A DNA stretch of 32,000 nt from Chlamydiales bacterium (GCA_965261025.1 OZ253438.1:1170001-1202000), one strand, 5' to 3'; counted from the first letter of the stretch, positions 11,542 through 27,524 are shown. The notes: generated by a model not told the origin, from the letters alone. Translations and numbers: made by a program.

Positions 11542-12231
11542 CTAGCTTGAAAGAGCCCAACGGATTGGTTTAATTCCTTTTTTTTCCAGATAACAATTTG
11601 TTTTTGAAAAAGGTTTAGAGCCAAAAAAGCCAAAAGAAGCAGAATAAGGAGAAGGGTGGGCCGAGGAAAGAACGAGGTGATCTTTAGGAATTTTTGCTAA
11701 GATCCTTTCGCACTTTTCTTGAGCTGATTTTCCCCAAAGGAGGAAAACCAAAGAATCTTTCTTTTCTGCTAAAAGCTGAATGACTCGATCAGTAAAAATT
11801 TCCCATCCTTTTCCATAGTGAGATCTAGGTTCTTTTTCTCTCACCGTTAAAGTAGCGTTGAGAAGAAGCACTCCTTCTTTGGCCCAACCCAGTAAAGAGC
11901 CTTGCTTTGGAGGAGGAATGTGTAGATCCTCTTCTAATTCTTTGAAAATGTTTTTTAAAGAAGGGGGAAAAGGAGTGCCTTCTTGTACGCTAAAAGAAAG
12001 GCCGTGAGCTTGGTCTTTTCCATGGTAAGGATCTTGTCCTAAAAGAACCACTTTTACCGCATCAAAAGGGGTTTGACAAAAGGCGTTAAAAAGGAGAGAA
12101 GAAGGGGGATAAAGGAGTTTTCCTTCTTTTATTTCTTTTCGCAAGAAATCTTGAAGATCTTTCATGTAAGGCATTTTCCACTCTTTCTCCAAAAGGTGGG
12201 CCCATTTTTGTTCCATATAAAAAGGAGTCAT
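11542..12231 (-). CDS. ung: Uracil-DNA glycosylase, family 1
   Basis: VVLLGQDPYHGKDQAHGLSFSV (water-activating Asp loop), GVLLLNATLTV and the C-terminal HPSPYSA His motif. Its ATG overlaps the TGA of the upstream epimerase gene (ATGA at 12228-12231). Confidence 0.92.
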   Translation of the reverse strand: MTPFYMEQKWAHLLEKEWKMPYMKDLQDFLRKEIKEGKLLYPPSSLLFNAFCQTPFDAVKVVLLGQDPYHGKDQAHGLSFSVQEGTPFPPSLKNIFKELEEDLHIPPPKQGSLLGWAKEGVLLLNATLTVREKEPRSHYGKGWEIFTDRVIQLLAEKKDSLVFLLWGKSAQEKCERILAKIPKDHLVLSSAHPSPYSASFGFFGSKPFSKTNCYLEKKGIKPIRWALSS

Positions 12232-13163
12232 ATATTTTTAAATTCACTTCTTTTCAAAAGAGGATAAGCAAATACCATCTCTTGAATTCCCTCTTCTAAA
12301 GTTTTTGTAGGAGCCCAACCGAGAGATTCTAGCTTTTCATTGCTTACGATATAGTTTCTTTGATCTGGATCTTTCCCTATAGGAGCAGAGTGAATATATA
12401 GGTCAGGAACATATCTTTGTATCGTTTCTGCTAGTTCTTTTTTACTGAGATTTGCAGAACTTAACCCTACATTAAAAGCCTCAGCTCTCATTCTATCAAA
12501 GTTTTGTATAGCAAATAGAAAAGCTCTAGCTACGTCTTTTACGTGGATGTAGTTTCTTTTGAAATGCTCTTCGAAAAGAACTAGAACCTTGTCATGACAG
12601 GCGCGAAAAGTAAAGTCATTGACCAAAAGATCGAGACGCATTCTGGGAGATATCCCAAACACAGTAGCGAGTCTTAAAGAAACGGCTTGCTTTGTTTGTA
12701 GTAACTTTTTTTCTATATCTACTTTGAGTTTTCCATATAAAGAAACGGGGTTTAACGGAGTTTTTTCGGTGCAGAAAAGATTGTTTTGCCCTAGCCCATA
12801 CCCGCTATTGCTATTTGGAAACACTATTTTTTTCTCTTTTGTCATATAGCGCAAAATCAGCTCAATAGCGTCGTAATTTACAAGCTTTGCCAAAGAAGGA
12901 GAGGCTTGGCAAATAGGGGCTCCTACTAAAGCCGCTAGAGGAAGAATGATATCTGCTTCTTCAACTAGATGAGCAAGAAGAGGTTCATTTTGTACTTCCC
13001 CTTTTATAAAACGAAAATGAGGACTGGCAAAGCAACAAAGAAGGGAGGTGGGTGTATACAAAAGAGAATCCAAAACAGTAACGAAAAACCCTTCTTCTAA
13101 AAGAAGAGGAACCATTACGGAGCCTATGTATCCTGCTCCCCCTGTTACTAAGATATGTTGCAT
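12228..13163 (-). CDS. NAD-dependent nucleotide-sugar epimerase/dehydratase/reductase (extended SDR)
   Basis: ILVTGGAGYIGS Rossmann motif and YGKLK (YxxxK). 311 aa. It overlaps the upstream nucleotidyltransferase gene by 16 nt. Confidence 0.85.
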   Translation of the reverse strand: MQHILVTGGAGYIGSVMVPLLLEEGFFVTVLDSLLYTPTSLLCCFASPHFRFIKGEVQNEPLLAHLVEEADIILPLAALVGAPICQASPSLAKLVNYDAIELILRYMTKEKKIVFPNSNSGYGLGQNNLFCTEKTPLNPVSLYGKLKVDIEKKLLQTKQAVSLRLATVFGISPRMRLDLLVNDFTFRACHDKVLVLFEEHFKRNYIHVKDVARAFLFAIQNFDRMRAEAFNVGLSSANLSKKELAETIQRYVPDLYIHSAPIGKDPDQRNYIVSNEKLESLGWAPTKTLEEGIQEMVFAYPLLKRSEFKNI

Positions 13164-13867
13164 AAGTTAGAAAGTGCGGTTTGTGCTTGTTGAAAGGATT
13201 TTTCTGTTCCTATATCGACAAAAGTCTTATCGCAAGGATACATAAAGAAACGCTTTTGTAAACAAAGGGGAAATACCTCTTTTTCCAAAGAAAAAGAAGG
13301 AGATTCAAAAGGCAAATCGGAAAAAAGGCTCTTTCGAAAAAGATAGGTACCACAGCTAATCCATCCTTTTTCTGAAAAAGGGATCTTCTCTTCAAAAGAA
13401 AGAATTTGGGAAGTAGTAGGATCTATGCTTACAGTTCCATATCTACTAGTGTCTTCCATTTGTTTTCCTAAAAGGGAAATGTCTGCTTTTTTTTCTAAAA
13501 AGCTTTGGTAGAATCCCTTTAGAGAATAGTCTGTAAAACAGTCCCCATTAGTAGCAAGTACATGAGGGGTTTTTACTAAATTCAAAGCTCTTTTTAAAGC
13601 ACCGCCCGTTCCCAAAGGGGTCTCTTCTATAGAAAAATAGAGGGGAAATGAGGTTTCTTTAAAGTGTTCCAAGATTTTCCCTGCTTTATATCCCACAGCC
13701 AGGATAATCCTACCTACCGAAGAAAAGGAGGCGAGCTGGTTTATCAAAAGATCCAAAAAAGGAATTCCTCGAATGGGAGCAAGGGGTTTAGGGACGGAAG
13801 AAACAACTTTTTGCAGACGAGTTCCGAATCCCCCTGCCAAAATAATAGCGTCTGTTTTATTTGTCAT
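13148..13867 (-). CDS. Sugar-1-phosphate nucleotidyltransferase (HddC / mannose-1-P guanylyltransferase-like)
   Basis: AIILAGGFGTRLQ..PKPLAPI signature (GxGTRL). 239 aa. ATGA overlap with the kinase gene at 13864-13867. Confidence 0.85.
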   Translation of the reverse strand: MTNKTDAIILAGGFGTRLQKVVSSVPKPLAPIRGIPFLDLLINQLASFSSVGRIILAVGYKAGKILEHFKETSFPLYFSIEETPLGTGGALKRALNLVKTPHVLATNGDCFTDYSLKGFYQSFLEKKADISLLGKQMEDTSRYGTVSIDPTTSQILSFEEKIPFSEKGWISCGTYLFRKSLFSDLPFESPSFSLEKEVFPLCLQKRFFMYPCDKTFVDIGTEKSFQQAQTALSNLCNIS

Positions 13868-14868
13868 AAGTCCTTCCTATAAATCAGAGAGCTTCCCTCT
13901 TTTTCTAAGGAAAAGGGAACCGCAAAAAGAGGACGAAGTGCTTCTTTTACCTCCATCTTCTTGGAAGGGGGAACCATTAGTAACAAGAAACCGCTCTGCC
14001 CTGCTCCACAAAGCTTCCCTCCTAAAGCTCCTGCTTTCCTTGCTTTTTCGTAATACAGATTAATCGTTTCGTTAGAAATTTGAGAAGAAAGTTTTTGTTT
14101 TAACTGCCAGCTATAGTCTAAAAGTTCGGCAAGTTTCTCCGGGAAAAAGAGCTCCTTTTGTTCTAGGAAAATTTTTTTTGCTTCGTATACCAAGGAAACC
14201 ATCGTTTCTAAAAAGGAATCATTTTTATTTTCTTTTGTATTTTGAATTTGCTCTTGGATTACTTTTTCTGCAAATCGTGTGGTTCCTGTATAAAAAAGCA
14301 TCAGATGTTCCATAAAGCAAAGGCGTTTTTCCTCAGGGATAGGTAGGGGAAAAACCTCTATTCCCTTAGGGGAAAATTCCATTAGGTTGCATCCTCCAAA
14401 AGAGGCATGGTATTGATCTTGGGATCCCACTTTTTCTCGAATCATCTGTTGTTCTACAAAGCAAGCCTCTTTAGCTAAAAGATTTTTAGAAATGTTTCTT
14501 CCTTGTAGAGCTGCTAAAGCGTGTAGAAATCCAACCGTAAAAGAAGAAGAGGAGCCAAGACCTGTTCTGGCGGGAAGATCCGAGCAAATATGAACATCTA
14601 AAGGCTCTTCTAACTTATAAAAACGGAGGCATTCTCGAATACTGGGATGCTCAATCTCTTCCAGGGAATTTACGGCCTCTACTTTGGAGTAAGATAGGCG
14701 CATCTTGTGCGGAAAAAAAGGGCTTGTTTTTTTCACGGTAACGTAGGTGTATTGATCTATAGTAGTTCCTAAGATAGCTCCTTTTTTTCTTAAGTAGTAT
14801 TCTGTATAGTCAGAACCTCCTCCGAAAAAACTAATCCTTACAGGAGTTTTAGAAATCACCAAAACCAT
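13864..14868 (-). CDS. GHMP-family sugar kinase (HddA / heptose-7-phosphate-kinase-like)
   Basis: N-terminus is KTPVRISFFGGGSDY. GHMP ATP motif is LPARTGLGSSSSFTVGF. 334 aa. It is the first gene of the minus-strand operon. Confidence 0.85.
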   Translation of the reverse strand: MVLVISKTPVRISFFGGGSDYTEYYLRKKGAILGTTIDQYTYVTVKKTSPFFPHKMRLSYSKVEAVNSLEEIEHPSIRECLRFYKLEEPLDVHICSDLPARTGLGSSSSFTVGFLHALAALQGRNISKNLLAKEACFVEQQMIREKVGSQDQYHASFGGCNLMEFSPKGIEVFPLPIPEEKRLCFMEHLMLFYTGTTRFAEKVIQEQIQNTKENKNDSFLETMVSLVYEAKKIFLEQKELFFPEKLAELLDYSWQLKQKLSSQISNETINLYYEKARKAGALGGKLCGAGQSGFLLLMVPPSKKMEVKEALRPLFAVPFSLEKEGSSLIYRKDL

Positions 14869-14980
14869 AGCAAAAAGCAGTTGGGTAAAGAGCCATGGTA
14901 GCTTTCACGATTTTTTTATCCAAATCTTATTTATTTTTTGCTAATGTCTCTCTTTAGTTAGGAGGAGAGGGCTGGTTTTT
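14869..14980. promoter_or_regulatory. Divergent intergenic region (kinase operon on minus, C-methyltransferase/fcl-like/gmd operon on plus), including a strong SD for the plus-strand gene
   Basis: Back-to-back starts. GGAGGAGAGG at 14961-14970 lies 10 nt before GTG 14981. I found no confident -35/-10 elements by eye. Confidence 0.35.
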
Positions 14981-16180
14981 GTGTTTTGTAGAGTCTGTGA
15001 TAAAAGAGATTTTCGTTTAGTAGTAGATCTGAAAGAGCAACCTTGGGGGAATCATTTTTTGCAAAAAGAAGAGTTGGGAAAAGAACAAAAATATCCTCTT
15101 CGTCTTGTTTATTGCGAAAGTTGTTCTACTGTGCAACTAGACCATACGGTAAAAAAGGAAATCCTGTTTTTAGACCACACGTATCTTTCTGGTATGACTC
15201 AGACCTTAAAAAGACATTTTTCTAAGGAGGCTCAAAGAGTAGATAATCGATTTTTCTCTAAAAAAAAGAAAAAGAGAGTTCTCGATATAGGTTCCAATGA
15301 TGGTACGCAGTTACGCTTTTATAAGGAGATGGGATATGAAGTAGTGGGAGTGGAGTCTTCTAAAAAAGCGGCAGAGATTGCTTCAAAAGAGGGAATCTAC
15401 ACTATTTGTGATTTCTTTAACTTTGACCTTGCCAGGAAAATAGGAGGTTTTTTTGACGTAATCAATGCAGCAGGAGTTTTTTTTCACCTAGAAGAACTTC
15501 ATTCAGTTTGTGAGGGTATTCGTTATCTTTTGGAGGAAAAAGGGGTTTTTATCATTCAATGCATGTATATGAAAAACATCGTAGAAAAGGGGGCTTTTGA
15601 TCAGATTTATCATGAGCATCTTCTTTATTATACGGTTCGCTCTTTAACTACCCTTTTAAAAAGGCATGGATTGGAGCTTTTTGAGGTGGAAGTAAATCCT
15701 ATTCATGGAGGGTCTTTGATAGCCTATGCTTCGCATAAAGGAAGCTTTCCTATTCTTTCTTCTTTGCTGGCTTTAGAAAAAGAGGAAGAGCAACAGGGGT
15801 GTAACACCTATGAATACTACCAAAGATTTGCTGAGAAAATACAGGTCCTCAAAGAGGAAAATCTTCGATTTTTTTCTGAGGCAAAAAAAGAGGGAAAAAC
15901 GATTTATGGTATGGGAGCTCCTGTAAAAGGCAATACCCTTTTAAACTACTTTGGGATAGGAACAGAATATATTTCCTATTTGGTAGAAAAAAATCCTTTA
16001 AGGAAGGGATTGTATAGTCCTGGTATGCATATTCCCATAATTTTGGAGGAGGATCTGACTACAGTTCCAGATATCTACTACGTGTTGGCATGGAATTTTA
16101 AGCAGGAAATTTTGCAAAGGCACCTCGATCTTGTAAAAAGAGGAATTCAATTTCATTTTCCTATAGGTGGAAGCACATGA
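14981..16180 (+). CDS. Zn-ribbon C-methyltransferase (NDP/GDP-sugar C-methyltransferase type), paralogue of 412-1674
   Basis: GTG start with a strong SD. CRVC ... CESC zinc-ribbon pair. SAM motif I is VLDIGSNDGTQL. YHEHLLYY and the C-terminal Methyltransf_14-like domain are present. 4-nt overlap with the next gene. Confidence 0.8.
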   Translation: MFCRVCDKRDFRLVVDLKEQPWGNHFLQKEELGKEQKYPLRLVYCESCSTVQLDHTVKKEILFLDHTYLSGMTQTLKRHFSKEAQRVDNRFFSKKKKKRVLDIGSNDGTQLRFYKEMGYEVVGVESSKKAAEIASKEGIYTICDFFNFDLARKIGGFFDVINAAGVFFHLEELHSVCEGIRYLLEEKGVFIIQCMYMKNIVEKGAFDQIYHEHLLYYTVRSLTTLLKRHGLELFEVEVNPIHGGSLIAYASHKGSFPILSSLLALEKEEEQQGCNTYEYYQRFAEKIQVLKEENLRFFSEAKKEGKTIYGMGAPVKGNTLLNYFGIGTEYISYLVEKNPLRKGLYSPGMHIPIILEEDLTTVPDIYYVLAWNFKQEILQRHLDLVKRGIQFHFPIGGST

Positions 16181-17124
16181 GTATTTTGGTAACAGGGGCT
16201 TCCGGATTTTTAGGGAAGTTTTTAGTAGAGACTCTCTTAAAACGAGGGAAAAAAGTAATTGCTTTGGATAGCAAGAAAGCAGATCTTACCGAAAAAGGCT
16301 CTTTAAGGGATTTTGATTCTTATAATATTTCTACGATTTACCACTTAGCCGCTTGGACACAAGCAGGAGATTTTTGCCTTTATCATTCAGCACAGCAGTG
16401 GTTTATTAATCAAAAGATCAACTTGCACGTCTTAGATTGGTGGGTAAAAAAACAGCCTCAAGCCAAAATGGTAAGTATAGGAACTAGCTGTTCTTATGAT
16501 CCAGAACACCCTTTGAAAGAGGAATTTTACCTTCAAGGAAAACCAATAGATAGTCTGTTTACCTATGCTATGACAAAAAGAATGCTTCTTACGGGTTTAC
16601 AAGCTGTGAACAGGCAATATGGACTGAAGTATTTATATGTGATCCCCTCTACCCTTTATGGTCCCAGCTATCATGAGGATGGAAGGCAAATGCATTTTAT
16701 CTTTGACTTGGTTCGTAAAATTTTAGAGGGAAAGTTTTGCGGAAAACCTGTTATCTTATGGGGGGATGGGAAGCAAGAAAGAGAAATAATTCATGTGTTT
16801 GACTTTATAAGAACGCTTTTAGAATTGGAAGAAACTACATCAGATACATGGATTAACATAGGGGCCGGGAAAGGTTACTCTATTAGGGATTTTGCCCAAA
16901 AAATTTGCAAGCTGGTTGGCTTTCCCTGGGAAAAAGTTCAGTTTGATAGTTCTCGTTATGTAGGAGCAAGATCAAAGATTTTAGATATAGAAAAACTGCG
17001 AAAGCTTAGACCCAATCTTTCTTTTCTTCCATTGGAGGAAGGATTAAAAGACTTAATTGAATGGTTTTGTATTAAGAAGAATTATTCAGTATTTAAGGCT
17101 GACGTAGAAAGAAATGCAAAATAG
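16177..17124 (+). CDS. GDP-4-keto-6-deoxyhexose epimerase/reductase (GDP-L-fucose synthase / Fcl-like extended SDR)
   Basis: ILVTGASGFLGK, a YAMTK catalytic motif, and PSTLYGP..H plus VQFDSSRYVGARSKILDIEKL, which parallels the E. coli Fcl C-terminus (FDASKPDGTPRKLLDVTRL, recalled from memory). It sits immediately upstream of gmd. Confidence 0.8.
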   Translation: MSILVTGASGFLGKFLVETLLKRGKKVIALDSKKADLTEKGSLRDFDSYNISTIYHLAAWTQAGDFCLYHSAQQWFINQKINLHVLDWWVKKQPQAKMVSIGTSCSYDPEHPLKEEFYLQGKPIDSLFTYAMTKRMLLTGLQAVNRQYGLKYLYVIPSTLYGPSYHEDGRQMHFIFDLVRKILEGKFCGKPVILWGDGKQEREIIHVFDFIRTLLELEETTSDTWINIGAGKGYSIRDFAQKICKLVGFPWEKVQFDSSRYVGARSKILDIEKLRKLRPNLSFLPLEEGLKDLIEWFCIKKNYSVFKADVERNAK

Positions 17125-17148
17125 TAAGGTTTTATTTTAGGTTTATCT

Positions 17149-18189
17149 ATGGCAAAAAAAGCCCTGATTACAGGGATTACAGGGCAAGATGGTTCTTATT
17201 TAGCAGAGCTACTTTTAGAAAAAGGCTACCTAGTACATGGACTAGCCAGAAGAACTTCTTCTTCCTCTTTTACTAGAATTCTTTCGCTCCAAAATCACCC
17301 TAATTTTTTCCTTCATGAAGGAGACCTTACTGACTTTTCTAGCTTAAAAAGACTTTTGGAAGAAATCTCTTTTGAAGAAATCTATAATTTAGCTGCTATG
17401 AGTCATGTCCAAAGCTCTTTTTCCGTTCCCTTAAGCACAGCGGATATAAATGGGTTGGGGGTTTTGCGTTTTCTGGAGCTTTTGAGGAATAGCTCTGCGA
17501 ACACCAAATTTTATCAAGCTTCTACTTCAGAACTTTTTGGTAAAGTAAAACAAGTTCCCCAAAATGAAAATACGGCTTTTCATCCAAGATCTCCTTATGC
17601 TACTTCCAAGCTTTTTGCTTATTGGTCTGTAGTAAACTACCGAGAAGCGTACCATCTTTTTGCCTGTAACGGCATTTTATTTAACCACGAAAGTCCAAGA
17701 AGAGGAGAAAATTTTGTTACCCGAAAAATTACTTTGGCTGCGGCTAGAATAGAACGAGGACTACAAACAGAGCTGGTTTTAGGAAATCTTGAAGCGAAAA
17801 GAGATTGGGGCTATGCCAAAGATTTTGTAGAAGGTATGTGGAGAATCCTTCAGCAAAAAATGCCGGAGGATTTTGTTCTTTCTACAGGGAAGACTCACAG
17901 TGTAAGAGAATTTGTAGAACTTGTCTTTGAGAAAATAGGAAGAAATCTTGTTTGGGAAGGAAAAGGTTTACAAGAGGTGGGAAGAGATCGGAACACGCAA
18001 AAAATTCTTGTGAGAGTCTCTCCCGAATATTTCAGGCCTACCGAAGTAGACTTGCTCCTAGGAGATCCTTCTAAGGCAAAAAAAAAGCTAGGATGGGAGG
18101 CTTCTACTGATCTAAAAAATCTGGCTTCTTTGATGGTAGAAGAAGACAGAAAAACCGTAGAAAGGATCTGTCAGGAAAGCTCCTGTTAG
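17149..18189 (+). CDS. gmd: GDP-mannose 4,6-dehydratase
   Basis: KKALITGITGQDGSYLAELLLEKGYLVHGLARRTSS is almost identical in pattern to canonical Gmd N-termini. Also present: STSELFG, YATSKLFAYW, NHESPRRGENFVTRKIT and RDWGYAKDFVEGMW. Confidence 0.93.
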   Translation: MAKKALITGITGQDGSYLAELLLEKGYLVHGLARRTSSSSFTRILSLQNHPNFFLHEGDLTDFSSLKRLLEEISFEEIYNLAAMSHVQSSFSVPLSTADINGLGVLRFLELLRNSSANTKFYQASTSELFGKVKQVPQNENTAFHPRSPYATSKLFAYWSVVNYREAYHLFACNGILFNHESPRRGENFVTRKITLAAARIERGLQTELVLGNLEAKRDWGYAKDFVEGMWRILQQKMPEDFVLSTGKTHSVREFVELVFEKIGRNLVWEGKGLQEVGRDRNTQKILVRVSPEYFRPTEVDLLLGDPSKAKKKLGWEASTDLKNLASLMVEEDRKTVERICQESSC

Positions 18190-19397
18190 AACACGAAAGA
18201 AGCTCTTTTTTCAAGAGCTCTTTTAGCTAATTCCTTACCTATAGAAAAGGAGGCGGTAGCGGCAGGAGAAGGAGCATTTAATACCTGAAGCGTATTTTTC
18301 GTCTCCTGAATACAAAAGTCGTAAAGAATTTCCCCTTTTCCAGAAATAAGTTGGGAACGAAGCCCTATAAGACCTGGAATTAGATCTTTTTCTGTAATGG
18401 AGGGGATCAGTTTTTGAGCCTCTTGAGTAAACTTTTTTTTATAAAAAGAGCGAAAAAGTTCTATAACTCCGACTTTTGTATTTTTTAGACCCATTTTCCA
18501 AAATCCAGGAAATAGGATCATCTGAAGCACTTGAGAAAAATCAAAGGCTCTTTTCGTATATTTTTTCTTGGAAAAAGCCAAAACCGCATTGGGGCCTACT
18601 TCTACACCACCTTTCATCATAGGAGTAAAATGAATTCCTAAAAAAGGATATCTCAAATCACAGACAGGGTAAATAAGCCCTTTTATCAAAGGGATTTTTT
18701 CAGGAACTAGCTGATAATATTCCCCTCGAAAGGGAATGATTCGTAAAGAGAGGTGAGGAAGCACCATCTTCGCAATTTGATCAGAAAAAATCCCAGCACA
18801 GTTAATGACCAAGGAGGCTCTTATTTCTTTGGTAGTAGTTTGTAAGATAGCCTCTCTCTCATTAGAAAGGAGTTTTTCTGCTTTTTCCTTTAAGAAAAAG
18901 TCAACCCCTTCCTTTCTCAAATTCTCATAAAGTTTTTCTGCTACTTTACAAAATTCTACAATAGCACAAGAGGGAACGGATAAAGCTTTAATCCCTACAG
19001 CATAAGGCTCTTTTTCTTGTAGTTCCTCAGGACCCATCAGACGCAGTCCAGGAATTTGATTAGCCCTTCCTCTTCTTTCTATTTCATATAAGTTAGGAAG
19101 ATCCTCTTCTTTGGTAGCTACAATCACTTTTCCTAAAGGTTTCACAGGAATGTGGTTCTCTTGACAAAAAGCTAAAAGTTCCTTTCTTCCCTCTAAACAG
19201 TTTTTTGCCTTAAAAGATCCAGGAGGATAATAGACCCCTGAATGAACTACCCCGCTATTATGAGAAGTTTGTTGTGATCCTACCTTCTTTTCTTTCTCTA
19301 TGACAGCAATAGAAAGAGAGGGGGCTTTTTTTCGGATCTGGTATGCCGTGCAAAGGCCAACAATTCCTCCTCCCACTATGGTGATATCATATTTCAT
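18186..19397 (-). CDS. FAD-dependent oxidoreductase of the L-2-hydroxyglutarate oxidase/dehydrogenase (LhgO/YgaF) type
   Basis: YDITIVGGGIVGLCTAYQI (GxGxxG) followed by QTSHNSGVVHSGVYYPPGSFKAKNCLEG, which closely follows the LhgO pattern HNSGVIHAGVYYTPGSLKA (recalled from memory). Its stop overlaps the gmd stop (TTAG at 18186-18189). Confidence 0.75.
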   Translation of the reverse strand: MKYDITIVGGGIVGLCTAYQIRKKAPSLSIAVIEKEKKVGSQQTSHNSGVVHSGVYYPPGSFKAKNCLEGRKELLAFCQENHIPVKPLGKVIVATKEEDLPNLYEIERRGRANQIPGLRLMGPEELQEKEPYAVGIKALSVPSCAIVEFCKVAEKLYENLRKEGVDFFLKEKAEKLLSNEREAILQTTTKEIRASLVINCAGIFSDQIAKMVLPHLSLRIIPFRGEYYQLVPEKIPLIKGLIYPVCDLRYPFLGIHFTPMMKGGVEVGPNAVLAFSKKKYTKRAFDFSQVLQMILFPGFWKMGLKNTKVGVIELFRSFYKKKFTQEAQKLIPSITEKDLIPGLIGLRSQLISGKGEILYDFCIQETKNTLQVLNAPSPAATASFSIGKELAKRALEKRASFVF

Positions 19398-20200
19398 GAA
19401 AACCCTATAGAAATTTGGGACAGTTTTTCTCCATAAAGAGCAAAGCTGGTCTTCTCAATATGGTACAATTTTTTCTCGATACTTAGTTCATTTAAGTATC
19501 TATAAACTCCGGGATAATTGGGATCATAATCATGCCAAAGGATAACTCCTTGCAGTGAGAGTTTTTCCAGGACTTTTTGGGTATCCCTTTTTACATTTTC
19601 ATAGGAATGAGAACCGTCAATAAAGCAAAAGTCGATAGCTCCTTTTTTACAAAAAAGGGAAAAATCATATTCTGCGGAATCTCCTAAGTGCTGCACTACT
19701 TTGTGTTCCATGGGAGTGTTTTGGTATTTCCTTTGTTGTTTTTGTAGATCTGTTACAAATTTTACTTCCCTTCTTAAGATAGGAGCGCTTGTTTTTTCTC
19801 CAGAAGAAGGGAGATCAATGGTGTGCACTACGGCTTTTTTTGACGTATTTAAAGCTAGCTGTAAAGTAGTGTTACCGTCAAAGGTGCCTATTTCTACCGA
19901 GTTTGTAGGGTTTAAGGTTTTTACAACAGAGGCGAGTACAAGAAGCTCTAAGTAAGATACGTTACCATCTCGCGTATCACAGTTAAGTAAGGAAATTTCT
20001 CCTGCCTGACGGATCAATTTTTCTGGGGATATTTTTTGTAGTTTGCACGACTTATAAGCTCCGGCAGCATACAAAGAGGTAATGCTGGGTTTTAAGATGG
20101 GTTTAAGGAGCCTGGGATATCGGATAGCAAAAAAAAGGGCTTTTAAGACTCTAGATATTTTGTGAAACTTTTCTGTTTTTATTTTCAAAGTCTCAGACAT
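19394..20200 (-). CDS. Class I SAM-dependent methyltransferase (Methyltransf_24 / TylF-CmcI-like)
   Basis: NSVEIGTFDGNTTLQLA (motif I) and FCFIDGSHSYENVKRD..GVILWHDY. ATG 20200 is preceded by GGAGAGGA and is preferred over the track's TTG at 20281. ATGA overlap with the LhgO-like gene at 19394-19397. Confidence 0.7.
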   Translation of the reverse strand: MSETLKIKTEKFHKISRVLKALFFAIRYPRLLKPILKPSITSLYAAGAYKSCKLQKISPEKLIRQAGEISLLNCDTRDGNVSYLELLVLASVVKTLNPTNSVEIGTFDGNTTLQLALNTSKKAVVHTIDLPSSGEKTSAPILRREVKFVTDLQKQQRKYQNTPMEHKVVQHLGDSAEYDFSLFCKKGAIDFCFIDGSHSYENVKRDTQKVLEKLSLQGVILWHDYDPNYPGVYRYLNELSIEKKLYHIEKTSFALYGEKLSQISIGFS

Positions 20201-20371
20201 AAGTCCTCTCCATATAAGAGTGTTAAAACAGGGGAAGGGTAGGTTATGAACCTTTTTTTGTAAAGAGCAGCCCTCTTTCAAAAAATCCTTTATTCTTTGG
20301 GAAAAATAATTTCCCCTATTTAGTATAAGTGTCCATATTGAATATATTCTGGAAGGCTAAATGGATTTTTT
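20201..20371. promoter_or_regulatory. Divergent intergenic region (methyltransferase/LhgO-like operon on minus, GT4-GT4-FkbM operon on plus)
   Basis: Back-to-back starts in AT-rich sequence. It contains a perfect short inverted repeat, GGGAAA-aataa-TTTCCC, at 20299-20315. Promoter elements were not confidently assignable. Confidence 0.3.
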
Positions 20372-21457
20372 ATGAAAAAATTATGTGTTGATGCCAGAAT
20401 GCTTTTTTCTTCTGGAATCGGAACGTATTTAAGAAATATTCTTCAGGGGCTCCAAAAAGAAAAGCAGTTTACCATCTCTGTAATTGTTCCGGAAAAATTT
20501 GCGCAGGAGAAGGAGATAGCCCCTTTTTCCAAGATCTTTTGTAAAGCACCTATTTATTCGATAGAAGAGCAGCTAGCTCTACCTTTTTTTATTCCCTCTT
20601 GCGATCTTTTTTGGTCTCCTCATTTTAATGTTCCTTTAGCAAAAATTCGGGCTAAAAGACGGATAGTAACCCTTTGCGATATCTACTTTTTCATGCATCA
20701 AAAAAATCTTTCCTGGTTGAAAAAAAAGTATGCGCAGATTTTTTATCAAAAAGCCATAGATGCTTCTGAAAGAGTCATTACCATTTCTTCCTTTTCTGAA
20801 AGAGAGATTAGGGAAAATCTAAAAAGGACGGAGCAAAAAATAGTAACGATTCCGTTGGGAGTAGAGAGACAAGACTTTGTAGAAGGAGAGAAAAAAAGAA
20901 AGCTTCCCTCTTCTTTTTTCTTGTATGTGGGAAATCTAAAACCGAATAAAAATTTGGAGAGACTTTTTAGGGCCTTTTCCAAGCTTTCTTCTGAGAATCC
21001 TTCCCTTTCTTTAGCGGTAATTTCTAGGAGTAAAAAGCAGGAAAGAGAGAAAATTATACGAGAAGCGTTTTCTGGAGAAAAGCTTCCTTCTTCTATCATT
21101 TTTTTTGAAGATGTCTCCAATAAAGAGCTTCCTTTTTTTTATAAAGAAGCAATCTCTTTAGTATTTCCTTCTCTTTATGAAGGATTTGGGCTTCCTCCTT
21201 TAGAGGCTATGATTGCAGAGTGTCCTGTTTTAGCTTCCAATATAGAAGTGATTCAAGAAGTTTGTAAATCTTCAGTTCTCTATTTTGATCCTTATCAAGA
21301 GGGGGAGATATACCAGAGAATGAAACAGGTCTTAGAGGATACACAAATGAGAGAAGAGCTTCGAGAAAAAGGCAAAATCTATGCAAAAAATCTCTCTTGG
21401 GAGAAAACTATAAAGAGTCATGTCACTCTGTTTGAGGAGATTTTGGAGAAGGTATGA
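20372..21457 (+). CDS. Family 4 (GT-B, group 1) glycosyltransferase
   Basis: C-terminal EX7E region is PSLYEGFGLPPLEAMIAECPVLAS. 361 aa. Confidence 0.85.
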   Translation: MKKLCVDARMLFSSGIGTYLRNILQGLQKEKQFTISVIVPEKFAQEKEIAPFSKIFCKAPIYSIEEQLALPFFIPSCDLFWSPHFNVPLAKIRAKRRIVTLCDIYFFMHQKNLSWLKKKYAQIFYQKAIDASERVITISSFSEREIRENLKRTEQKIVTIPLGVERQDFVEGEKKRKLPSSFFLYVGNLKPNKNLERLFRAFSKLSSENPSLSLAVISRSKKQEREKIIREAFSGEKLPSSIIFFEDVSNKELPFFYKEAISLVFPSLYEGFGLPPLEAMIAECPVLASNIEVIQEVCKSSVLYFDPYQEGEIYQRMKQVLEDTQMREELREKGKIYAKNLSWEKTIKSHVTLFEEILEKV

Positions 21458-22587
21458 AAACAGCTTTAGTCCATGATTGGCTAACGTGTTTAGCGGGAGC
21501 AGAAAAAGCGCTTCAGTCTTTATATACACTTTATCCTTCTCCTATTTATACTTTGTTAGCGGATTTTTCCTCTTTAAAAGGGTCTTTTTTTGAGAGAAAA
21601 GAAATTCATACCTCCTTCATTCAAAGACTTCCTTTTGCCAAGAAAAAATATCGAAGCTATCTTCCCTTTTTTCCTTTAGCCATAGAGCAGCTGGATGTTT
21701 CCTCTTATGATCTAGTTCTTTCTTCTTCTCACTGTGCTGCTAAAGGGGTTTTAACCCACGCAGAGCAGCTACACATTTGTTACTGTCATACCCCTGTTCG
21801 GTATGCTTGGGATATGTATCATGAGTATTTATCTATGGGAAATCTAAAAAAAGGAGGAAAGGGGCTTTTAGCAAAGATTTTTCTCCACTACTTTCGTAGC
21901 TGGGATAAACTCTCCGCTAGTAGAGTAGATTATTTTTTAGCTAATTCCCACTTTATAGCAAAAAGGATCGAAAAGGTTTACGGGAGAAAGGCGGAGGTAG
22001 TATTTTTTCCTGTGAATACGAAATTTTTTACCTTTTGCGACAAAAAAGAGGACTTTTACTTAGCGGTTTCAAGACTGGTCCCTTATAAAAAAATGGATGT
22101 AATAGTTCGGGCTTTTCACAATATGCCTGAGAAAAAGCTTATAGTCATCGGAGATGGGCCTGAGCTTTCAAGACTAGAGAAAATGAAATCTTCTAATGTA
22201 TCTTTTATGGGATATCAAAAAGATGAAGTGGTAAGAAGTTATATGCAAAAAGCAAAAGCGTTTTTATATGCTGCCTTAGAAGATGCAGGAGTCGTTCCCG
22301 TAGAAGCCATGAGTTGCGGAACTCCTGTTATTGCTTACGGAAAAGGAGGCATTTTAGATAGCGTAATACCAAAAGTTACAGGGCTTTTTTTCCTAGAACA
22401 AACTCCAAAGGCTTTAGAAGAGGCTATTGAGGCTTTTGAGAAAAGGAGTTTTGATCTAGAAAAAATAAGAGAGCATGCAGAAAATTTTTCTAAGGAAAAC
22501 TTTGAAAAAAGGCTCTATAATAGTATCGAAACAAAAAAAGTAAACTTCTTTACTCCAGGGAAAAGCCATCATGGGTTCCTTTTCTAA
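21454..22587 (+). CDS. Family 4 (GT-B, group 1) glycosyltransferase
   Basis: N-terminus is MKTALVHDWLTCLAGAEKAL, and AALEDAGVVPVEAMSCGTPVIAYGKGG is the EX7E region. 4-nt overlap with the upstream GT4 gene. Confidence 0.85.
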   Translation: MKTALVHDWLTCLAGAEKALQSLYTLYPSPIYTLLADFSSLKGSFFERKEIHTSFIQRLPFAKKKYRSYLPFFPLAIEQLDVSSYDLVLSSSHCAAKGVLTHAEQLHICYCHTPVRYAWDMYHEYLSMGNLKKGGKGLLAKIFLHYFRSWDKLSASRVDYFLANSHFIAKRIEKVYGRKAEVVFFPVNTKFFTFCDKKEDFYLAVSRLVPYKKMDVIVRAFHNMPEKKLIVIGDGPELSRLEKMKSSNVSFMGYQKDEVVRSYMQKAKAFLYAALEDAGVVPVEAMSCGTPVIAYGKGGILDSVIPKVTGLFFLEQTPKALEEAIEAFEKRSFDLEKIREHAENFSKENFEKRLYNSIETKKVNFFTPGKSHHGFLF

Positions 22588-23341
22588 GTATGCTATTCAA
22601 AGGATTGTTCCTCCTTTTTTGTACCGCTTTTTATCTAAGGTAAGACTTCCTGAAGAAGGGCTTGATTTTACGAAATTTTTGCTAGCAAAATATGCAGTAA
22701 GAAGAGGAGGAAGTCTTATCGATGGTGGAGCCCATATAGGGTTTTATTCCAGGTGTTATGCCCAACTTTTAAAGAAAAAACCGGGTCGTCTTTTTTCTTT
22801 TGAACCGAACCCTTATCTTTTTCCTCTTTTGCAAAAGACTAGAGTTCTTCCCAAAGAAAAACATTTTTTTTTCCAAAAAGCTCTGTGTAAGACAAGTGGA
22901 GAAAAAAAAGCTTTTTTTGTGCGCCCCTTTTCTTTGGCAGAAGATAGCTCTTTAAAGCGCCCTTTAGAAAAAAAAGCCTTTAAAAGAATCGAAGTAGAAA
23001 GTTTTTGTCTGGATGATCTTTACAAGAGATATGAACTGAAAGATTGTAAGTTGGTAAAACTGGATGTAGAAGAAAACGAAGCTCTTGTTTTTGAGGGAGC
23101 TGCTCTTTTTTTACAAGAAGTTTCACCTTGGATAATCTTCGAATATACTCAAGAAGAAAAAAAAGAAAATCGTACTCTGCATATTTTGCAAGAAGGGGGA
23201 TACGTTTTTTTTGATTTACAGACCTTTGAGAAGGTAAGCTCTTCTTATAAAAGCCTATTAACAGATTTAGTAGCTGTTGCAAGGAAAGACGAGGAGGAGC
23301 TAAAAAATGTCCTAAGGTCTATTGAGTTCTTAACCGTTTAG
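22571..23341 (+). CDS. FkbM-family SAM-dependent methyltransferase
   Basis: LIDGGAHIGFYS (the FkbM 'DxGAxxG' motif), SFEPNP and VKLDVEENE. Overlaps the upstream GT4 gene by 17 nt. Confidence 0.7.
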   Translation: MGSFSKYAIQRIVPPFLYRFLSKVRLPEEGLDFTKFLLAKYAVRRGGSLIDGGAHIGFYSRCYAQLLKKKPGRLFSFEPNPYLFPLLQKTRVLPKEKHFFFQKALCKTSGEKKAFFVRPFSLAEDSSLKRPLEKKAFKRIEVESFCLDDLYKRYELKDCKLVKLDVEENEALVFEGAALFLQEVSPWIIFEYTQEEKKENRTLHILQEGGYVFFDLQTFEKVSSSYKSLLTDLVAVARKDEEELKNVLRSIEFLTV

Positions 23342-23368: not shown

Positions 23369-23989
23369 CTATTCTAAGCGAGAAAAGTTAGGTTTTTGAT
23401 GCTCGTATTGAATAAAATGATAAATTCTAAGGGCAGCTGTAAGCAAAACTAGGGAGCTAAACAGGAGCGTTATCAAAGGGAAAATACCCGGAAAAAGGAT
23501 CATTAAAGAGAAAAATAAAAACGCTTCTGCTCTTTCAATTAGGCCTGAGCTATAATGAAAACTTTTTTGGCCTGTATTTTCTGTAAAAATACCTACAACA
23601 AGAAATGAAGTAACGCAAATTAAGATGGAACCTAGCATAAGTAGGGAGTAGATTCCTCTGGTTTCAGGATGAAATAAAAAAAGAGCTAAAATCACAGAAA
23701 ATTCTACCACACGGTCGCTTATAATATCCAAAGCACTTCCCAAAGGAGAAGACTGGTTTTTTAGTCTTGCCAAAGTTCCATCTAGGGTATCTAAATAGCC
23801 AGAAAATAAAAGACAGATCAAACTTTTCCAGATCGATCCGGTGCTTATGGGTATTGCACTGAGAATTCCGATGAAACAGCTTGCCATAGTAAGATGAGAG
23901 GGAGATAGAAAAGACCAATTTTTTATTTGTTTTGCAAGGGGATCTACCAATAGAGATTGGTAAGGGCCTCGGAAGTATTTTTCTAGCAT
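23369..23989 (-). CDS. CDP-alcohol phosphatidyltransferase family protein
   Basis: Exact family signature D-x2-D-G-x2-A-R-x8-G-x3-D-x3-D in DTLDGTLARLKNQSSPLGSALDIISDRV. Multi-pass membrane protein of 206 aa. Its ATG overlaps the stop of the upstream fusion gene (ATGCTAG at 23983-23989). Confidence 0.85.
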   Translation of the reverse strand: MLEKYFRGPYQSLLVDPLAKQIKNWSFLSPSHLTMASCFIGILSAIPISTGSIWKSLICLLFSGYLDTLDGTLARLKNQSSPLGSALDIISDRVVEFSVILALFLFHPETRGIYSLLMLGSILICVTSFLVVGIFTENTGQKSFHYSSGLIERAEAFLFFSLMILFPGIFPLITLLFSSLVLLTAALRIYHFIQYEHQKPNFSRLE

Positions 23990-26177: not shown

Positions 26178-27524
26178 TCAAGAAGTTTTTATAAGGGTAG
26201 TTTCTAAAGAACCCTCCGTGCTTTTGAATATCGCTTGATTTTTCAAACAAAGTCCTAAGCAGAGTGCCGTATGAACCCAAAGGTAGTTTCGGAAAATATT
26301 TTGATTAAATTGAAGAACGCATAAGGAGATTAGAAGAGAAAGAAATAAAGCGATGATTCTATTTCTTTCTTGGAGGGGAAGTAGAGGATTTTCCACCGTT
26401 TTTTTGAAGACGTAATAAAGCGATAACCCCAGTAGGATAAAACCGAAAAAACCAAAAAGACCCAGACTTGCTAAAATCTCGGTAAGGACGTTGGTGGGAT
26501 CATAGGGAAGAACTTCTTCTAAAGTAACTTCTTGTAAGAAGGCTTGTTTTAAAAGTATTTCTTGATATAGATAAGGCCCAACTCCTCCTAATCCTACTCC
26601 TAAAAAGGGGTTTTCTAAAAAGACTTTCCAGGCGTTTACGATACCTTCCCATCGGGTGGAAAAACAACCATGGGAAGAGAAGTTTTTATTAAAGAATTTG
26701 AAAAAAGTGTCCGAGAAAATATGGGGAAAAAAAAACCAAAAAGAGCCAAAAATAAAGAACAAAAATCCAGAAAATAGGAGGAGTTTTTTTCGTAAAAAAC
26801 CGATGTATTTTTTCAAAAAAGTAAAAGAGCTAAAAAAAAGAGAGAGGCCGAGTAAAACAAAGTAAGCAAAAAATCCGCCTGTAGAAGTAGAGATTATAAG
26901 GAAAAGATTGATAAGAAAAAGCAGGAGAAAATTTTTCATAGAGAAGAAAGGCTTTTTTTCAAGCAGGAAGAAAAGGTTATGAAACATGACAAAAGAACCC
27001 ATATACAGAGCGTAAAAAGAAGGTTCATAGGTCCAAGCGTGGGGCCTGGCAAATTTTCCTAAAAATTGAGAGAGAAAGGGATCATATATTCCAAAAATAG
27101 AAAGAAAGAGTTGTAAAAAAGCATGCATTCCTACCAAAAGAAAGGAGAAAAAATAGATTCTGATAACTCTTTTTTCTTCTCCCTTCAAGACAAAGAGAAG
27201 GGGAAGGAGAAAGTAGCTTACGAATTGAAAACAATAAATACAAAAGTAGCCTAAAGAACGTAGAGGAAGAGGGCTAAAGAAGGAGGAGACAAAAAGGGAG
27301 AAAAAAATCCAAAGGGAAGCCATCCAAACAGGTTTAGGAAGAGAATACTGACGCAGCAAAGGGAAAAAAAGCAGCGTTAAAAATAAAGAGAAAAGATGGG
27401 TAGCTTTCAAGCGAAAAAAAACGAGTGTAATATAGAGCTTATCGGCAGAGAGGGTTACAAAGTAGATGAATAAAAAAAGGTAAGGAAGAGAAGGGGCTAT
27501 CCTATAAAGCTTTTTAGAAAACAT
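26178..27524 (-). CDS. O-antigen ligase / polymerase-like membrane protein (Wzy_C domain family)
   Basis: About 10-12 TM segments, very Phe/Leu-rich. The loop STRWEGIVNAWKVFLENPFLGVGLGGVGPY matches the Wzy_C/WaaL pattern (R..W......I...P..G.G.G). Its ATG (27522-27524) directly abuts the topA stop (TAG at 27525-27527). Confidence 0.7.
   Translation of the reverse strand: MFSKKLYRIAPSLPYLFLFIYFVTLSADKLYITLVFFRLKATHLFSLFLTLLFFPLLRQYSLPKPVWMASLWIFFSLFVSSFFSPLPLRSLGYFCIYCFQFVSYFLLPLLFVLKGEEKRVIRIYFFSFLLVGMHAFLQLFLSIFGIYDPFLSQFLGKFARPHAWTYEPSFYALYMGSFVMFHNLFFLLEKKPFFSMKNFLLLFLINLFLIISTSTGGFFAYFVLLGLSLFFSSFTFLKKYIGFLRKKLLLFSGFLFFIFGSFWFFFPHIFSDTFFKFFNKNFSSHGCFSTRWEGIVNAWKVFLENPFLGVGLGGVGPYLYQEILLKQAFLQEVTLEEVLPYDPTNVLTEILASLGLFGFFGFILLGLSLYYVFKKTVENPLLPLQERNRIIALFLSLLISLCVLQFNQNIFRNYLWVHTALCLGLCLKNQAIFKSTEGSLETTLIKTS

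Follow-up and report, generated by a model that had tools for sequence, protein, structure and literature searches.

What sugar is made by the enzymes encoded at positions 14981-18189 of this chlamydial sequence? The three genes found there, for a C-methyltransferase (CMT), an Fcl-like reductase (FclL) and Gmd, had been read in the first-pass annotation as an operon for a GDP-linked 6-deoxy-C-methyl-hexose. Our analysis of the window, by which we mean the whole 32-kb stretch of DNA, upholds one part of that reading, in that the enzymes very probably make a C-methyl-branched sugar linked to GDP. A virenose-like 6-deoxy sugar is less likely than a heptose, however, and the pathway most likely leads to a GDP-linked, methyl-branched seven-carbon sugar of the cell surface.

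Gene organisation

The ORF map agrees exactly with the coupling of the three genes described earlier. CMT (14981-16180; 399 residues from a GTG start), FclL (16177-17124; 315 residues) and Gmd (17149-18189; 346 residues) all lie on the plus strand, with a 4-nt overlap between the first two and a 24-nt gap, in which no terminator-like site was seen, before the third. The matches that place the three products in their families exceed chance by a wide margin. Across a 112-bp divergent intergenic region (14869-14980), an operon on the minus strand encodes an HddA-like heptose kinase (13864-14868), an HddC-like nucleotidyltransferase (13148-13867) predicted to be a heptose-1-phosphate guanylyltransferase, and a Cj1427-like C4-dehydrogenase (12228-13163); the kinase and nucleotidyltransferase genes overlap by 4 nt. 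These heptose-pathway genes went unconnected to the trio in the first-pass annotation.

Beyond Gmd, the minus strand carries coupled genes for an L-2-hydroxyglutarate (L2HG) oxidase (18186-19397) and a Methyltransf_24-type SAM methyltransferase, MT24 (19394-20281; PF13578). They are followed on the plus strand by two GT4 glycosyltransferases (20372-21457 and 21454-22587) and an FkbM methyltransferase (22571-23341), all assigned from Pfam, which are the probable users and decorators of the sugar. The GT4 pair recurs after the module in chlamydial loci L001, L004, L005, L014 and L076, and L017 retains the first of the two. The window contains only three extended SDRs. Within its 32 kb we found no cupin epimerase or RmlC-like gene, no gmhA or gmhB, and no reductase for the Gmd product other than FclL.

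The C-methyltransferase

The assignment of CMT to the TylCIII-like type, acting on NDP-4-keto sugars, is borne out by its domains and its relatives. It comprises a zinc ribbon (PF08421, 70 bits), a class I SAM methyltransferase domain (PF13489, 53 bits) and, C-terminal to the latter, a match to PF08484 (162 bits) that spans the whole length of the profile. The only close relatives of solved structure are sugar 3-C-methyltransferases, namely MtmC (249 bits), KijD1 (191 bits) and TcaB9 (183 bits). Cys3, Cys6, Cys45 and Cys48 align with the zinc cysteines of KijD1 and MtmC and are invariant in 120 family members, save for one that is gapped at the first position. His169, Tyr210, Glu212 and His213, kept in 120/120 members, correspond to the catalytic residues His181, Tyr222, Glu224 and His225 of TcaB9. 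The equivalent of TcaB9 Tyr76 is His66, and is histidine in 118 of the 120; this family-wide change may reflect a different sugar. Together these features support CMT as a bona fide C-methyltransferase of the NDP-4-keto-sugar type. By homology with TcaB9, KijD1 and MtmC the methylated carbon would be C3, with C5, as in NovU-type relatives, a possible alternative. To our knowledge the characterised relatives all act on dTDP-linked 2,6-dideoxy or 3-amino sugars, and we know of none that acts on a GDP-heptose.

A paralogous gene at 412-1674 had been taken to imply a second C-methylation. Its product is indeed related to CMT, at the distant level of 21-24% identity. Among solved structures it is related only to TcaB9, KijD1 and MtmC (67-71 bits). 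It retains the four zinc cysteines and the catalytic histidine; Phe and Gln replace TcaB9 Tyr222 and Glu224, and a Pfam search gave no PF08484 match. The second methylation itself is uncertain, since the gene heads a YerE-like ThDP carboligase cluster (carboligase at 5110-6870), a context that suggests a longer C-branch and not another methyl group.

The reductase partner

FclL, which matches PF01370 in Pfam, is a divergent GMER/Fcl-like extended SDR, predicted to act as epimerase and 4-reductase on the methylated 4-keto sugar. Its residues T103, C105, Y130, K134 and H173 align with S107, C109, Y136, K140 and H179 of Escherichia coli GMER, and both the T103/Y130/K134 triad and the C105/H173 dyad are invariant in 120/120 homologues. 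The description of this gene as Fcl-like holds only loosely. FclL is 30% identical to E. coli GMER and scores 133.9 bits on the NCBIfam Fcl equivalog NF047922, far below the cut-off of 500; it is not orthologous to canonical Fcl. The conserved pairing with gmd expected of a GMER is also absent, Gmd being found near FclL in 6 of 32 loci and non-adjacent in the closest relative; in most loci FclL sits directly after CMT.

Probable heptose-pathway genes

The kinase (PF00288) finds its best NCBIfam match in HddA (135 bits, cut-off 600), and its four best solved relatives are all heptose-7-phosphate kinases (3K85, WcbL 4USK/4USM and 4N3O; 118-128 bits), compared with 54 bits for galactokinase. For the nucleotidyltransferase (PF00483) the best NCBIfam match is HddC (151 bits, cut-off 300) and the best solved relatives are Yersinia HddC 5XHW/6JQ8 (114 bits), with mannose-1-phosphate guanylyltransferases at 84 bits among solved structures and 126 bits on an NCBIfam model. 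Both proteins fall well below the HddA and HddC equivalog cut-offs, so that a different sugar is possible; that their genes so often accompany GmhA and GmhB in other loci favours the heptose assignment.

The dehydrogenase gives a full-length match of 409.6 bits (E 7e-122) to PDB entries 6VO6/6VO8, with 56% of 306 aligned residues identical, and the runner-up among solved structures reaches 77 bits. We take 6VO6 to be Cj1427, in keeping with its PDB molecule name. The Cj1427 enzyme of Campylobacter jejuni is a GDP-D-glycero-D-manno-heptose C4-dehydrogenase that converts alpha-ketoglutarate to L-2-hydroxyglutarate (PMC10680097), and orthology predicts the same alpha-ketoglutarate-dependent, ping-pong oxidation for the enzyme encoded here.

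The L2HG oxidase, an NF008726 equivalog (467 bits, cut-off 299), is predicted to recycle the L-2-hydroxyglutarate that the Cj1427-like enzyme produces. It is encoded after FclL in 11 chlamydial loci. Equivalogs stand beside the dehydrogenase in unrelated lineages from several phyla, adjoining it in L026 (337 bits), L070 from Longimicrobium (538 bits) and L114, and lying near it in L154. This recurrent neighbour gives indirect backing to the alpha-ketoglutarate chemistry of the Cj1427-like enzyme.

Conservation of the gene neighbourhood

Which genes accompany CMT elsewhere? Orthologues were found in 80 genomes, where the conserved partners are FclL, the kinase, the HddC-like transferase and the Cj1427-like gene. 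Among the 42 loci with full flanks (at least 6 kb on each side), FclL is present in 32, the Cj1427-like gene in 29, the HddA-like kinase in 28, the HddC-like transferase in 23 and Gmd in 8. The view that Gmd is the conserved supplier of the 4-keto substrate does not survive these counts. Where FclL is also present, the Cj1427-like gene is found in 26/32 loci and Gmd in 6/32; five of those six also carry the Cj1427-like gene, the exception being L030.

The five genes form a collinear block on one strand in Verrucomicrobia, Syntrophales, Deltaproteobacteria, Kaiserbacteria and Labrys (L010, L018, L020, L035, L065 and L079), and the divergent arrangement of the window is repeated in many chlamydial loci. 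GmhA is encoded in at least 11 of the CMT-anchored loci and a GmhB-like protein in 4; in Calothrix L080 all four GDP-heptose genes accompany the Cj1427-like gene, CMT and FclL. In an independent set of 44 metagenome loci, each of at least 8 kb and anchored on the Cj1427-like gene, the kinase occurs in 32 and the transferase in 25, while GmhA is encoded in 13 and GmhB in 8. In one of these loci, L154, the order kinase-transferase-GmhA-GmhB-dehydrogenase is collinear. GmhA and GmhB lie inside the module in many lineages, among them archaea and CPR bacteria, groups not known to possess their own LPS heptose pathway. CMT and FclL belong to a widespread, uncharacterised gene module, whose cultured carriers include Taibaiella koreensis THG-DT86, Nostoc sp. 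C117 and Calothrix rhizosoleniae SC01.

The place of Gmd

Gmd is, as first annotated, unambiguous, with 496 bits on TIGR01472 (cut-off 415) and full-length matches of 395-418 bits to solved Gmd structures; the C. jejuni GDP-heptose 4,6-dehydratase 7US5 gives only 110 bits. Its position after FclL was part of the original pathway argument. In the closest relative, L081, whose proteins are 74-84% identical to those of the window, there are two operons, CMT-FclL-L2HG oxidase, a single overlapping unit, and MT24-Gmd. Because Gmd there runs along the opposite strand in overlap with MT24, which in the window is coupled to the L2HG oxidase instead, the order CMT-FclL-Gmd, and with it the coupling of the three genes on which the original argument rests, results from a local, recent two-gene inversion.

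Gmd would nevertheless supply a second 4-keto sugar, GDP-4-keto-6-deoxymannose. It follows FclL without a terminator, it recurs near the module in about 10/80 loci, and L030, a locus from Micrarchaeota, combines Gmd with CMT, FclL and an Rmd-like gene but has no gene of the Cj1427 type. A 6-deoxyhexose route must accordingly exist in some lineage and may also operate in this one. The Gmd product could pass to the CMT-FclL cassette, to a plain 6-deoxyhexose through FclL, or to the YerE-like carboligase, and a 6-deoxy-3-C-methylhexose fed by Gmd is a possible side route.

A proposed pathway

We consider it probable that CMT and FclL serve as the tailoring cassette in a pathway of GDP-heptose modification, the remainder of which is encoded divergently next door, and that the product is a GDP-3-C-methyl-heptose. 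From the homologies, conserved catalytic residues and gene neighbourhoods observed, we infer all of the substrates, the order of the CMT and FclL steps, the methylated position and all stereochemistry in the scheme that follows. Sedoheptulose-7-phosphate would be isomerised by GmhA, phosphorylated at O1 by the HddA-like kinase and relieved of its 7-phosphate by GmhB, neither the first nor the last of these enzymes being encoded in the window, and the heptose-1-phosphate would be converted to GDP-heptose by the HddC-like guanylyltransferase. The Cj1427-like enzyme would then give GDP-4-keto-heptose, its tightly bound NAD+ being restored by reduction of alpha-ketoglutarate to L-2-hydroxyglutarate, which the L2HG oxidase would return to alpha-ketoglutarate. 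In CMT, His213 may act as the base that deprotonates the carbon adjoining the 4-keto group (C3 by homology), before methyl transfer from SAM. The Cys105/His173 dyad of FclL would epimerise C5, the sole epimerisable centre once C3 is quaternary, and the Thr103/Tyr130/Lys134 triad would direct reduction of C4 with NAD(P)H. Transfer of the GDP-3-C-methyl-heptose to a surface glycan would fall to the neighbouring GT4 enzymes.

In the literature searched we found no description of a C-methyl-heptose sugar or of such a pathway. We suggest, tentatively, that GDP-activated C-methyl-branched heptoses could be an undescribed class of sugar, made by a compact module of five to seven genes that has spread by horizontal transfer and in several lineages brings its own L2HG oxidase. 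If so, the module would range over Chlamydiota, Verrucomicrobia, Planctomycetes, Proteobacteria, Bacteroidota, Cyanobacteria, CPR bacteria and DPANN archaea, and the oxidase would close the alpha-ketoglutarate/L-2-hydroxyglutarate redox shuttle that drives Cj1427-type sugar oxidation.

Could the CMT-FclL cassette instead accept both 4-keto sugars, yielding a C-methyl-heptose together with a 6-deoxy-C-methylhexose, or a plain 6-deoxy-L-hexose if methylation is skipped? Both generators, Gmd and the Cj1427-like enzyme, are encoded in the window and in the related loci L001 and L017, and the Gmd product would have no other reductase in the window. There is also a parallel in the related C. jejuni reductases DdahC and MlghC, which accept 4-keto sugars derived from heptose as well as from mannose but prefer the former (PMC7949155). 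Most loci do without Gmd, however, and its product may instead enter the YerE-like carboligase cluster or be used by a canonical Fcl or Rmd encoded outside the window; we regard this dual use as rather unlikely.

A route through Gmd alone, in which CMT methylates GDP-4-keto-6-deoxy-D-mannose at C3, FclL epimerises and reduces the product to a virenose-, evalose- or 3-C-methylfucose-type GDP-6-deoxy-3-C-methylhexose and the heptose genes serve a separate sugar, we judge improbable. The co-directional, closely spaced genes, the genuine Gmd, the trio proposed for Coxiella virenose and the example of L030 all favour it, as does the full GMER catalytic set of FclL, whose Cys/His dyad is used on exactly this substrate. 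Against it stand the scarcity of Gmd beside CMT-FclL, mostly in the company of the Cj1427-like gene, and the arrangement of L081, where FclL overlaps the L2HG oxidase and not Gmd. FclL is, moreover, not the Fcl orthologue of Coxiella. If CMT-FclL did not use the 4-keto-heptose, the Cj1427-like product would be left without a reductase in the locus, as the window encodes no cupin epimerase and no more than three extended SDRs.

It is very doubtful that the activated sugar is mannose or another hexose, with GDP-mannose oxidised at C4 by the Cj1427-like enzyme without deoxygenation to give GDP-3-C-methylmannose or an epimer: the sub-threshold HddA and HddC scores, the mannose-1-phosphate guanylyltransferase resemblance, the lack of gmhA and gmhB in the window and the existence of 3-C-methyl-D-mannose as a known rare sugar (PMC12961483) are outweighed by the GmhA and GmhB genes inside the module in many lineages, by the heptose-7-phosphate kinases that are the kinase's four best solved relatives, and by the location of C. 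jejuni gmhB, which is likewise outside its capsule cluster.

Comparison with known systems

With the GDP-heptose pathway thus preferred, how does it relate to characterised systems? CMT shares the three-domain architecture, four-cysteine zinc site and catalytic His/Glu/Tyr/His residues of the actinomycete antibiotic NDP-hexose 3-C-methyltransferases TylCIII, EryBIII, TcaB9, KijD1 and MtmC, with 31-34% identity, but nearly all of its family has histidine for TcaB9 Tyr76. Its context is GDP-heptose (or GDP-6-deoxymannose) rather than dTDP-linked 2,6-dideoxy or 3-amino sugars, and its setting is surface-glycan loci across many phyla rather than secondary metabolism. FclL similarly has the extended SDR fold, Ser/Thr-Tyr-Lys triad and Cys109/His179 epimerase dyad of E. 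coli GMER/Fcl/WcaG, but constitutes a separate clade whose tight genomic linkage is to CMT and not to Gmd.

The C. jejuni capsular GDP-heptose pathway of the HS:2 type (GmhA/HddA/GmhB/HddC, Cj1427, the cupin epimerase Cj1430 and the C4-reductase Cj1428) has the same activation logic as the window, which encodes a clear Cj1427 orthologue (56% identity). In both systems a 4-keto intermediate would be modified before an Fcl-related SDR reduces it, and in both gmhB is outside the cluster. The window differs in having no Cj1430-type cupin C3/C5 epimerase, a TylCIII-type C-methyltransferase being inserted instead, and in the linkage of its module to an L2HG oxidase; its kinase and transferase show no more than a distant relationship to HddA and HddC. 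FclL, too, belongs to a different, GMER-like clade from the epimerase-inactive, Cj1428-type C4-reductases and retains the Cys/His epimerase pair, which is missing from DdahC and MlghC (PMC7949155).

Finally, the Coxiella burnetii virenose precedent invoked by the first-pass annotation does exist, as an in-silico proposal for CBU_0689 (Gmd), CBU_0688 (Fcl) and CBU_0691 (TylCIII-like) (PMC3539893). There, as here, Gmd, an Fcl-family SDR and a TylCIII-like methyltransferase occur together, in Coxiella within the LPS locus of an intracellular bacterium. By description the Coxiella set stands apart, however, since CBU_0688 is a canonical Fcl with 45% identity to E. coli GMER, compared with 30% for FclL, and the conserved partner of the window's module is the heptose C4-dehydrogenase set rather than Gmd.

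Results

The three open reading frames proposed to form an operon all lie on the forward strand, at exactly the positions that the first-pass annotation gave: a TylCIII/TcaB9-type sugar C-methyltransferase (CMT, 14981-16180), a divergent GMER/Fcl-like SDR overlapping it by 4 nt (FclL, 16177-17124) and, after a gap of 24 nt, Gmd (17149-18189). No terminator-like structure was found in a scan of this gap between FclL and Gmd, and promoter-like sites were fewer than in shuffled sequence. The window, with a G+C content of ∼38%, comes from an environmental member of Chlamydiota, and the nearest homologues of its proteins are from Chlamydiales metagenome-assembled genomes.

CMT has the full NDP-hexose C-methyltransferase architecture (PF08421 zinc ribbon, class I methyltransferase domain and PF08484), and among solved structures only MtmC (249 bits), KijD1 and TcaB9 are substantial relatives. 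When 120 homologues are aligned with KijD1 and MtmC, H169, Y210, E212 and H213 (TcaB9 His181, Tyr222, Glu224 and His225) are invariant in the homologues, as are the four zinc cysteines except for a gap at the first cysteine in one; the position of TcaB9 Tyr76 is occupied by His in 118 of 120 family members. Architecture, solved relatives and conserved residues uphold the assignment of CMT as a C-methyltransferase, rather than an O- or N-methyltransferase, with a target carbon adjacent to a 4-keto group. The family is large, with more than 5,500 homologues at E ≤ 0.001 among 8,000 scored candidates.

The description of FclL as Fcl-like holds in part. The Ser/Thr-Tyr-Lys triad and the Cys109/His179 epimerase dyad (GMER numbering) are kept, and are invariant in 120 of 120 homologues, but the protein falls outside canonical Fcl both on score (134 bits against a cut-off of 500, with 30% identity to E. 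coli GMER) and on its linkage to Gmd. The C. jejuni heptose reductases DdahC and MlghC, without the Cys/His dyad, are pure reductases (PMC7949155); FclL, judged by its residues, plausibly performs both epimerisation and reduction. Gmd itself is genuine, as had been claimed, scoring 496 bits against an equivalog cut-off of 415 and matching solved Gmd structures at ∼400 bits. Its identification as a GDP-heptose dehydratase was rejected, the match to the C. jejuni GDP-heptose 4,6-dehydratase being 110 bits compared with ∼400.

One genome per species was scanned, giving 451 loci with CMT relatives, the best 80 of which (57-74% identity) were searched with all window proteins and their ORFs clustered. 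Among these best 80 of 451, FclL is found in 58, the Cj1427-like SDR (12228-13163) in 52, the GHMP kinase (HddA-like, 13864-14868) in 51, the nucleotidyltransferase (HddC-like, 13148-13867) in 40 and Gmd in 10-14. When flanks of at least 6 kb are required on each side, 42 loci remain, with corresponding counts of 32, 29, 28, 23 and 8. The five genes are collinear on a single strand in Verrucomicrobia, Syntrophales, Deltaproteobacteria, Kaiserbacteria and Labrys, and divergent in Chlamydiota, where the arrangement is that of the window. The CMT-FclL-heptose module is widespread, its five genes being found in more than 12 phyla, CPR bacteria and DPANN archaea among them.

Stand-alone CMT orthologues (57-60% identity) occur in unicellular cyanobacteria (L028, L034, L046, L051, L053, L055 and L061), where no FclL, heptose genes or Gmd were found within 8 kb of CMT; the CMT family therefore has at least one further context. 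Identity level was discarded as a separator of contexts, stand-alone cyanobacterial and module copies all being 57-63% identical to the window protein. An extra class I SAM methyltransferase of ∼280 aa, not in the window, is present in L033 (7040-7858) and 11 other loci, often between the Cj1427-like gene and CMT, and may O-methylate the same sugar.

The SDR matches PDB entries 6VO6/6VO8 at 409.6 bits (E 7e-122, 56% identity over 306 residues), with the next solved structure at 77 bits, and is their orthologue. We take 6VO6 to be Cj1427; its PDB name reproduces the Cj1427c annotation. Assignment as a 4,6-dehydratase or a GalE-type epimerase was rejected, Cj1427 matching at 410 bits and all others at 77 or below. 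No C. jejuni entry was found among the top 120 homologues, which are all environmental proteins, unnamed or with generic names. The end of the SDR gene overlaps by 4 nt with ung (uracil-DNA glycosylase, 11542-12231, reverse strand), placing a DNA-repair gene in one transcription unit with sugar genes, an arrangement kept in L081 and L082 and not in other loci.

The best solved relatives of the nucleotidyltransferase are Yersinia HddC (114 bits, compared with 84 for mannose-1-P guanylyltransferases). Both it and the kinase score under their NCBIfam equivalog cut-offs, so that genomic context matters for their assignment. GmhA is found in at least 11 of the CMT loci and a GmhB-like protein in 4, and the CMT locus of Calothrix (L080) has a complete set of GDP-heptose genes. 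In 44 metagenome loci collected independently around the Cj1427-like protein, the main neighbours are kinase (32), transferase (25), GmhA (13) and GmhB (8), with CMT, FclL, Gmd and L-2-hydroxyglutarate oxidase at 3 each. These neighbours place the dehydrogenase in a predicted GDP-heptose pathway, for which CMT-FclL would be one of the optional tailoring cassettes, dependent on the dehydrogenase. Neither gmhA nor gmhB was found within the 32-kb window; in C. jejuni gmhB likewise lies outside the capsule cluster.

The gene at 18186-19397, convergent with Gmd, scores 467 bits against an L-2-hydroxyglutarate oxidase equivalog cut-off of 299, and in 11 chlamydial loci its counterpart lies directly 3' of FclL. 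Outside Chlamydiota, equivalog-level copies immediately adjoin the Cj1427-like gene in L026 (11141-12397) and Longimicrobium L070 (389-1696); further oxidase-like matches are adjacent to it in L114 (8953-10185), near it in L154 and near it in L062 (sub-threshold). L026, L070 and L114 represent unrelated phyla. The tightly bound NADH of Cj1427 is re-oxidised by α-ketoglutarate, yielding L-2-hydroxyglutarate (PMC10680097), and from this by-product we read the oxidase as a regenerator of α-ketoglutarate. The simplest reading of its predicted activity suggests dedicated L-2-hydroxyglutarate recycling for a ping-pong Cj1427-like dehydrogenase. No mention of a link between the two enzymes was found in the literature searched.

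In the closest relative (L081, contig CAYGOC010000005, 74-84% protein identity), CMT, FclL and the oxidase overlap one another as a single unit, and a Methyltransf_24-type methyltransferase gene (MT24, 19394-20281 in the window) overlaps Gmd by 4 nt on the opposite strand. The segment carrying Gmd and the oxidase is inverted between the two (17149-19397 in the window, 3806-6080 in L081), swapping the translationally coupled partners: CMT-FclL-Gmd and MT24-oxidase in the window, CMT-FclL-oxidase and MT24-Gmd in L081. The relative's order is also that of other chlamydial loci. Set against it, the inversion marks the CMT-FclL-Gmd coupling as recent and idiosyncratic; the overlap and gap are real, and Gmd lies within the locus, but the operon is the product of a two-gene inversion and differs from that in L081.

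A six-gene forward-strand block (412-6870), also present in L081, begins with a distant TcaB9-like methyltransferase (412-1674) and includes a ThDP enzyme (5110-6870), just upstream of which are genes for a DmpF-like acetaldehyde dehydrogenase, a DmpG-like 4-hydroxy-2-oxovalerate aldolase, an HpcH aldolase and an SDR. YerE-like enzymes attach acyl branches to NDP-4-keto-deoxysugars. The best solved match of the ThDP protein is JanthE (8RPH; 340 bits, compared with 253 for acetolactate synthase), a YerE-like carboligase (PMC12188165), and the donors for ErwE and MMAR_2332 are 4-hydroxy-2-oxo acids (PMC12247030). By homology, the block resembles a pathway to an erwiniose- or caryophyllose-type sugar with long-chain C-branching, in which the aldolases would make the 4-hydroxy-2-oxo acid donor. 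The second C-methyltransferase gene noted earlier exists, but it is distant and heads a YerE-like block, making a second C-methylation uncertain.

Elsewhere in the window, topoisomerase I (27525-30068, reverse strand) has a SWIB domain at its C terminus, a fusion that is a chlamydial hallmark. Nearby is the Kdo 3-hydroxylase KdoO (31005-31961, forward strand; PF11004, 281 bits), implying that the LPS inner core of this environmental chlamydia contains Ko; in metagenome locus L083 the transferase and Cj1427-like genes directly abut TopA and KdoO. A 711-aa fusion of a pyridine-nucleotide-disulphide oxidoreductase (with dimerisation domain) and a VTT/DedA membrane domain (23983-26118, reverse strand) overlaps a CDP-alcohol phosphatidyltransferase gene (23369-23989) and adjoins a Wzy_C/O-antigen-ligase-like gene (26178-27524).

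Discussion

We conclude that a GDP-3-C-methyl-heptose pathway, with an L-2-hydroxyglutarate recycling partner, is the best explanation of the locus and a reasonably probable one. From homologies, residue conservation and gene linkage we infer its substrates, step order and stereochemistry. The Cj1427 orthologue would generate a 4-keto sugar, with α-ketoglutarate and L-2-hydroxyglutarate cycled through the oxidase. CMT would then methylate a carbon adjacent to the 4-keto group, C3 being expected by homology and C5 possible, after which FclL would epimerise C5, provided that C3 has by then become quaternary, and reduce C4. Transfer would fall to a GT4 pair, which is conserved with the module in Chlamydiota.

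What, then, does Gmd do? It could feed the same CMT-FclL cassette, giving the GDP-6-deoxy-C-methyl-hexose of virenose or evalose type originally proposed; it could lead to a plain 6-deoxyhexose, via FclL or an enzyme encoded elsewhere; or it could supply a ketone acceptor for the ThDP enzyme. Dual use, with one cassette serving both routes, accommodates both the authentic Gmd and the dehydrogenase, but we regard it as unlikely; among the 32 FclL-bearing full-flank loci the SDR is present in 26 and Gmd in 6. A route through Gmd only, for which its coupling to FclL speaks, is more doubtful still, a single one of those 32 loci (Micrarchaeota L030) having Gmd without the SDR. Overall, the original interpretation is supported in part.

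C-branched sugars are uncommon and frequently dominate as antigens, an example being virenose in Coxiella phase I LPS. If the heptose pathway is correct, C-methyl-heptose would be a new monosaccharide in the bacterial and archaeal glycome, and TylCIII-type C-methyltransferases would reach beyond antibiotic dTDP-deoxysugars to surface-glycan GDP-heptoses. The unusual α-ketoglutarate-dependent mechanism of Cj1427 would gain a physiological partner that disposes of L-2-hydroxyglutarate. With the predicted YerE-like long-chain branching pathway that the window additionally encodes, the surface glycans of environmental chlamydiae would be far more elaborate than the Kdo-only LPS of pathogenic Chlamydia. 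In the literature searched we found neither a C-methyltransferase that uses GDP-heptose nor a C-methyl-heptose. The prediction is a specific one, open to direct test and apparently not described before. Cultured carriers exist (Taibaiella koreensis, Nostoc sp. C117 and Calothrix), and C. jejuni enzymology provides substrates and assays.

How does this system compare with those already known? The Coxiella precedent invoked for the Gmd route does exist, as an in silico proposal only, in which Gmd and a C-methyltransferase act with a canonical Fcl, whereas FclL here is far from canonical; a Coxiella-style Gmd route should not be read into every Gmd/C-methyltransferase neighbourhood. Up to the 4-keto intermediate the predicted working is like that of the C. 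jejuni heptose pathway, from which the window system departs in its epimerase/reductase pair, and after that intermediate it resembles TylCIII-type methylation. It is a recombination of known enzyme types, not new chemistry.
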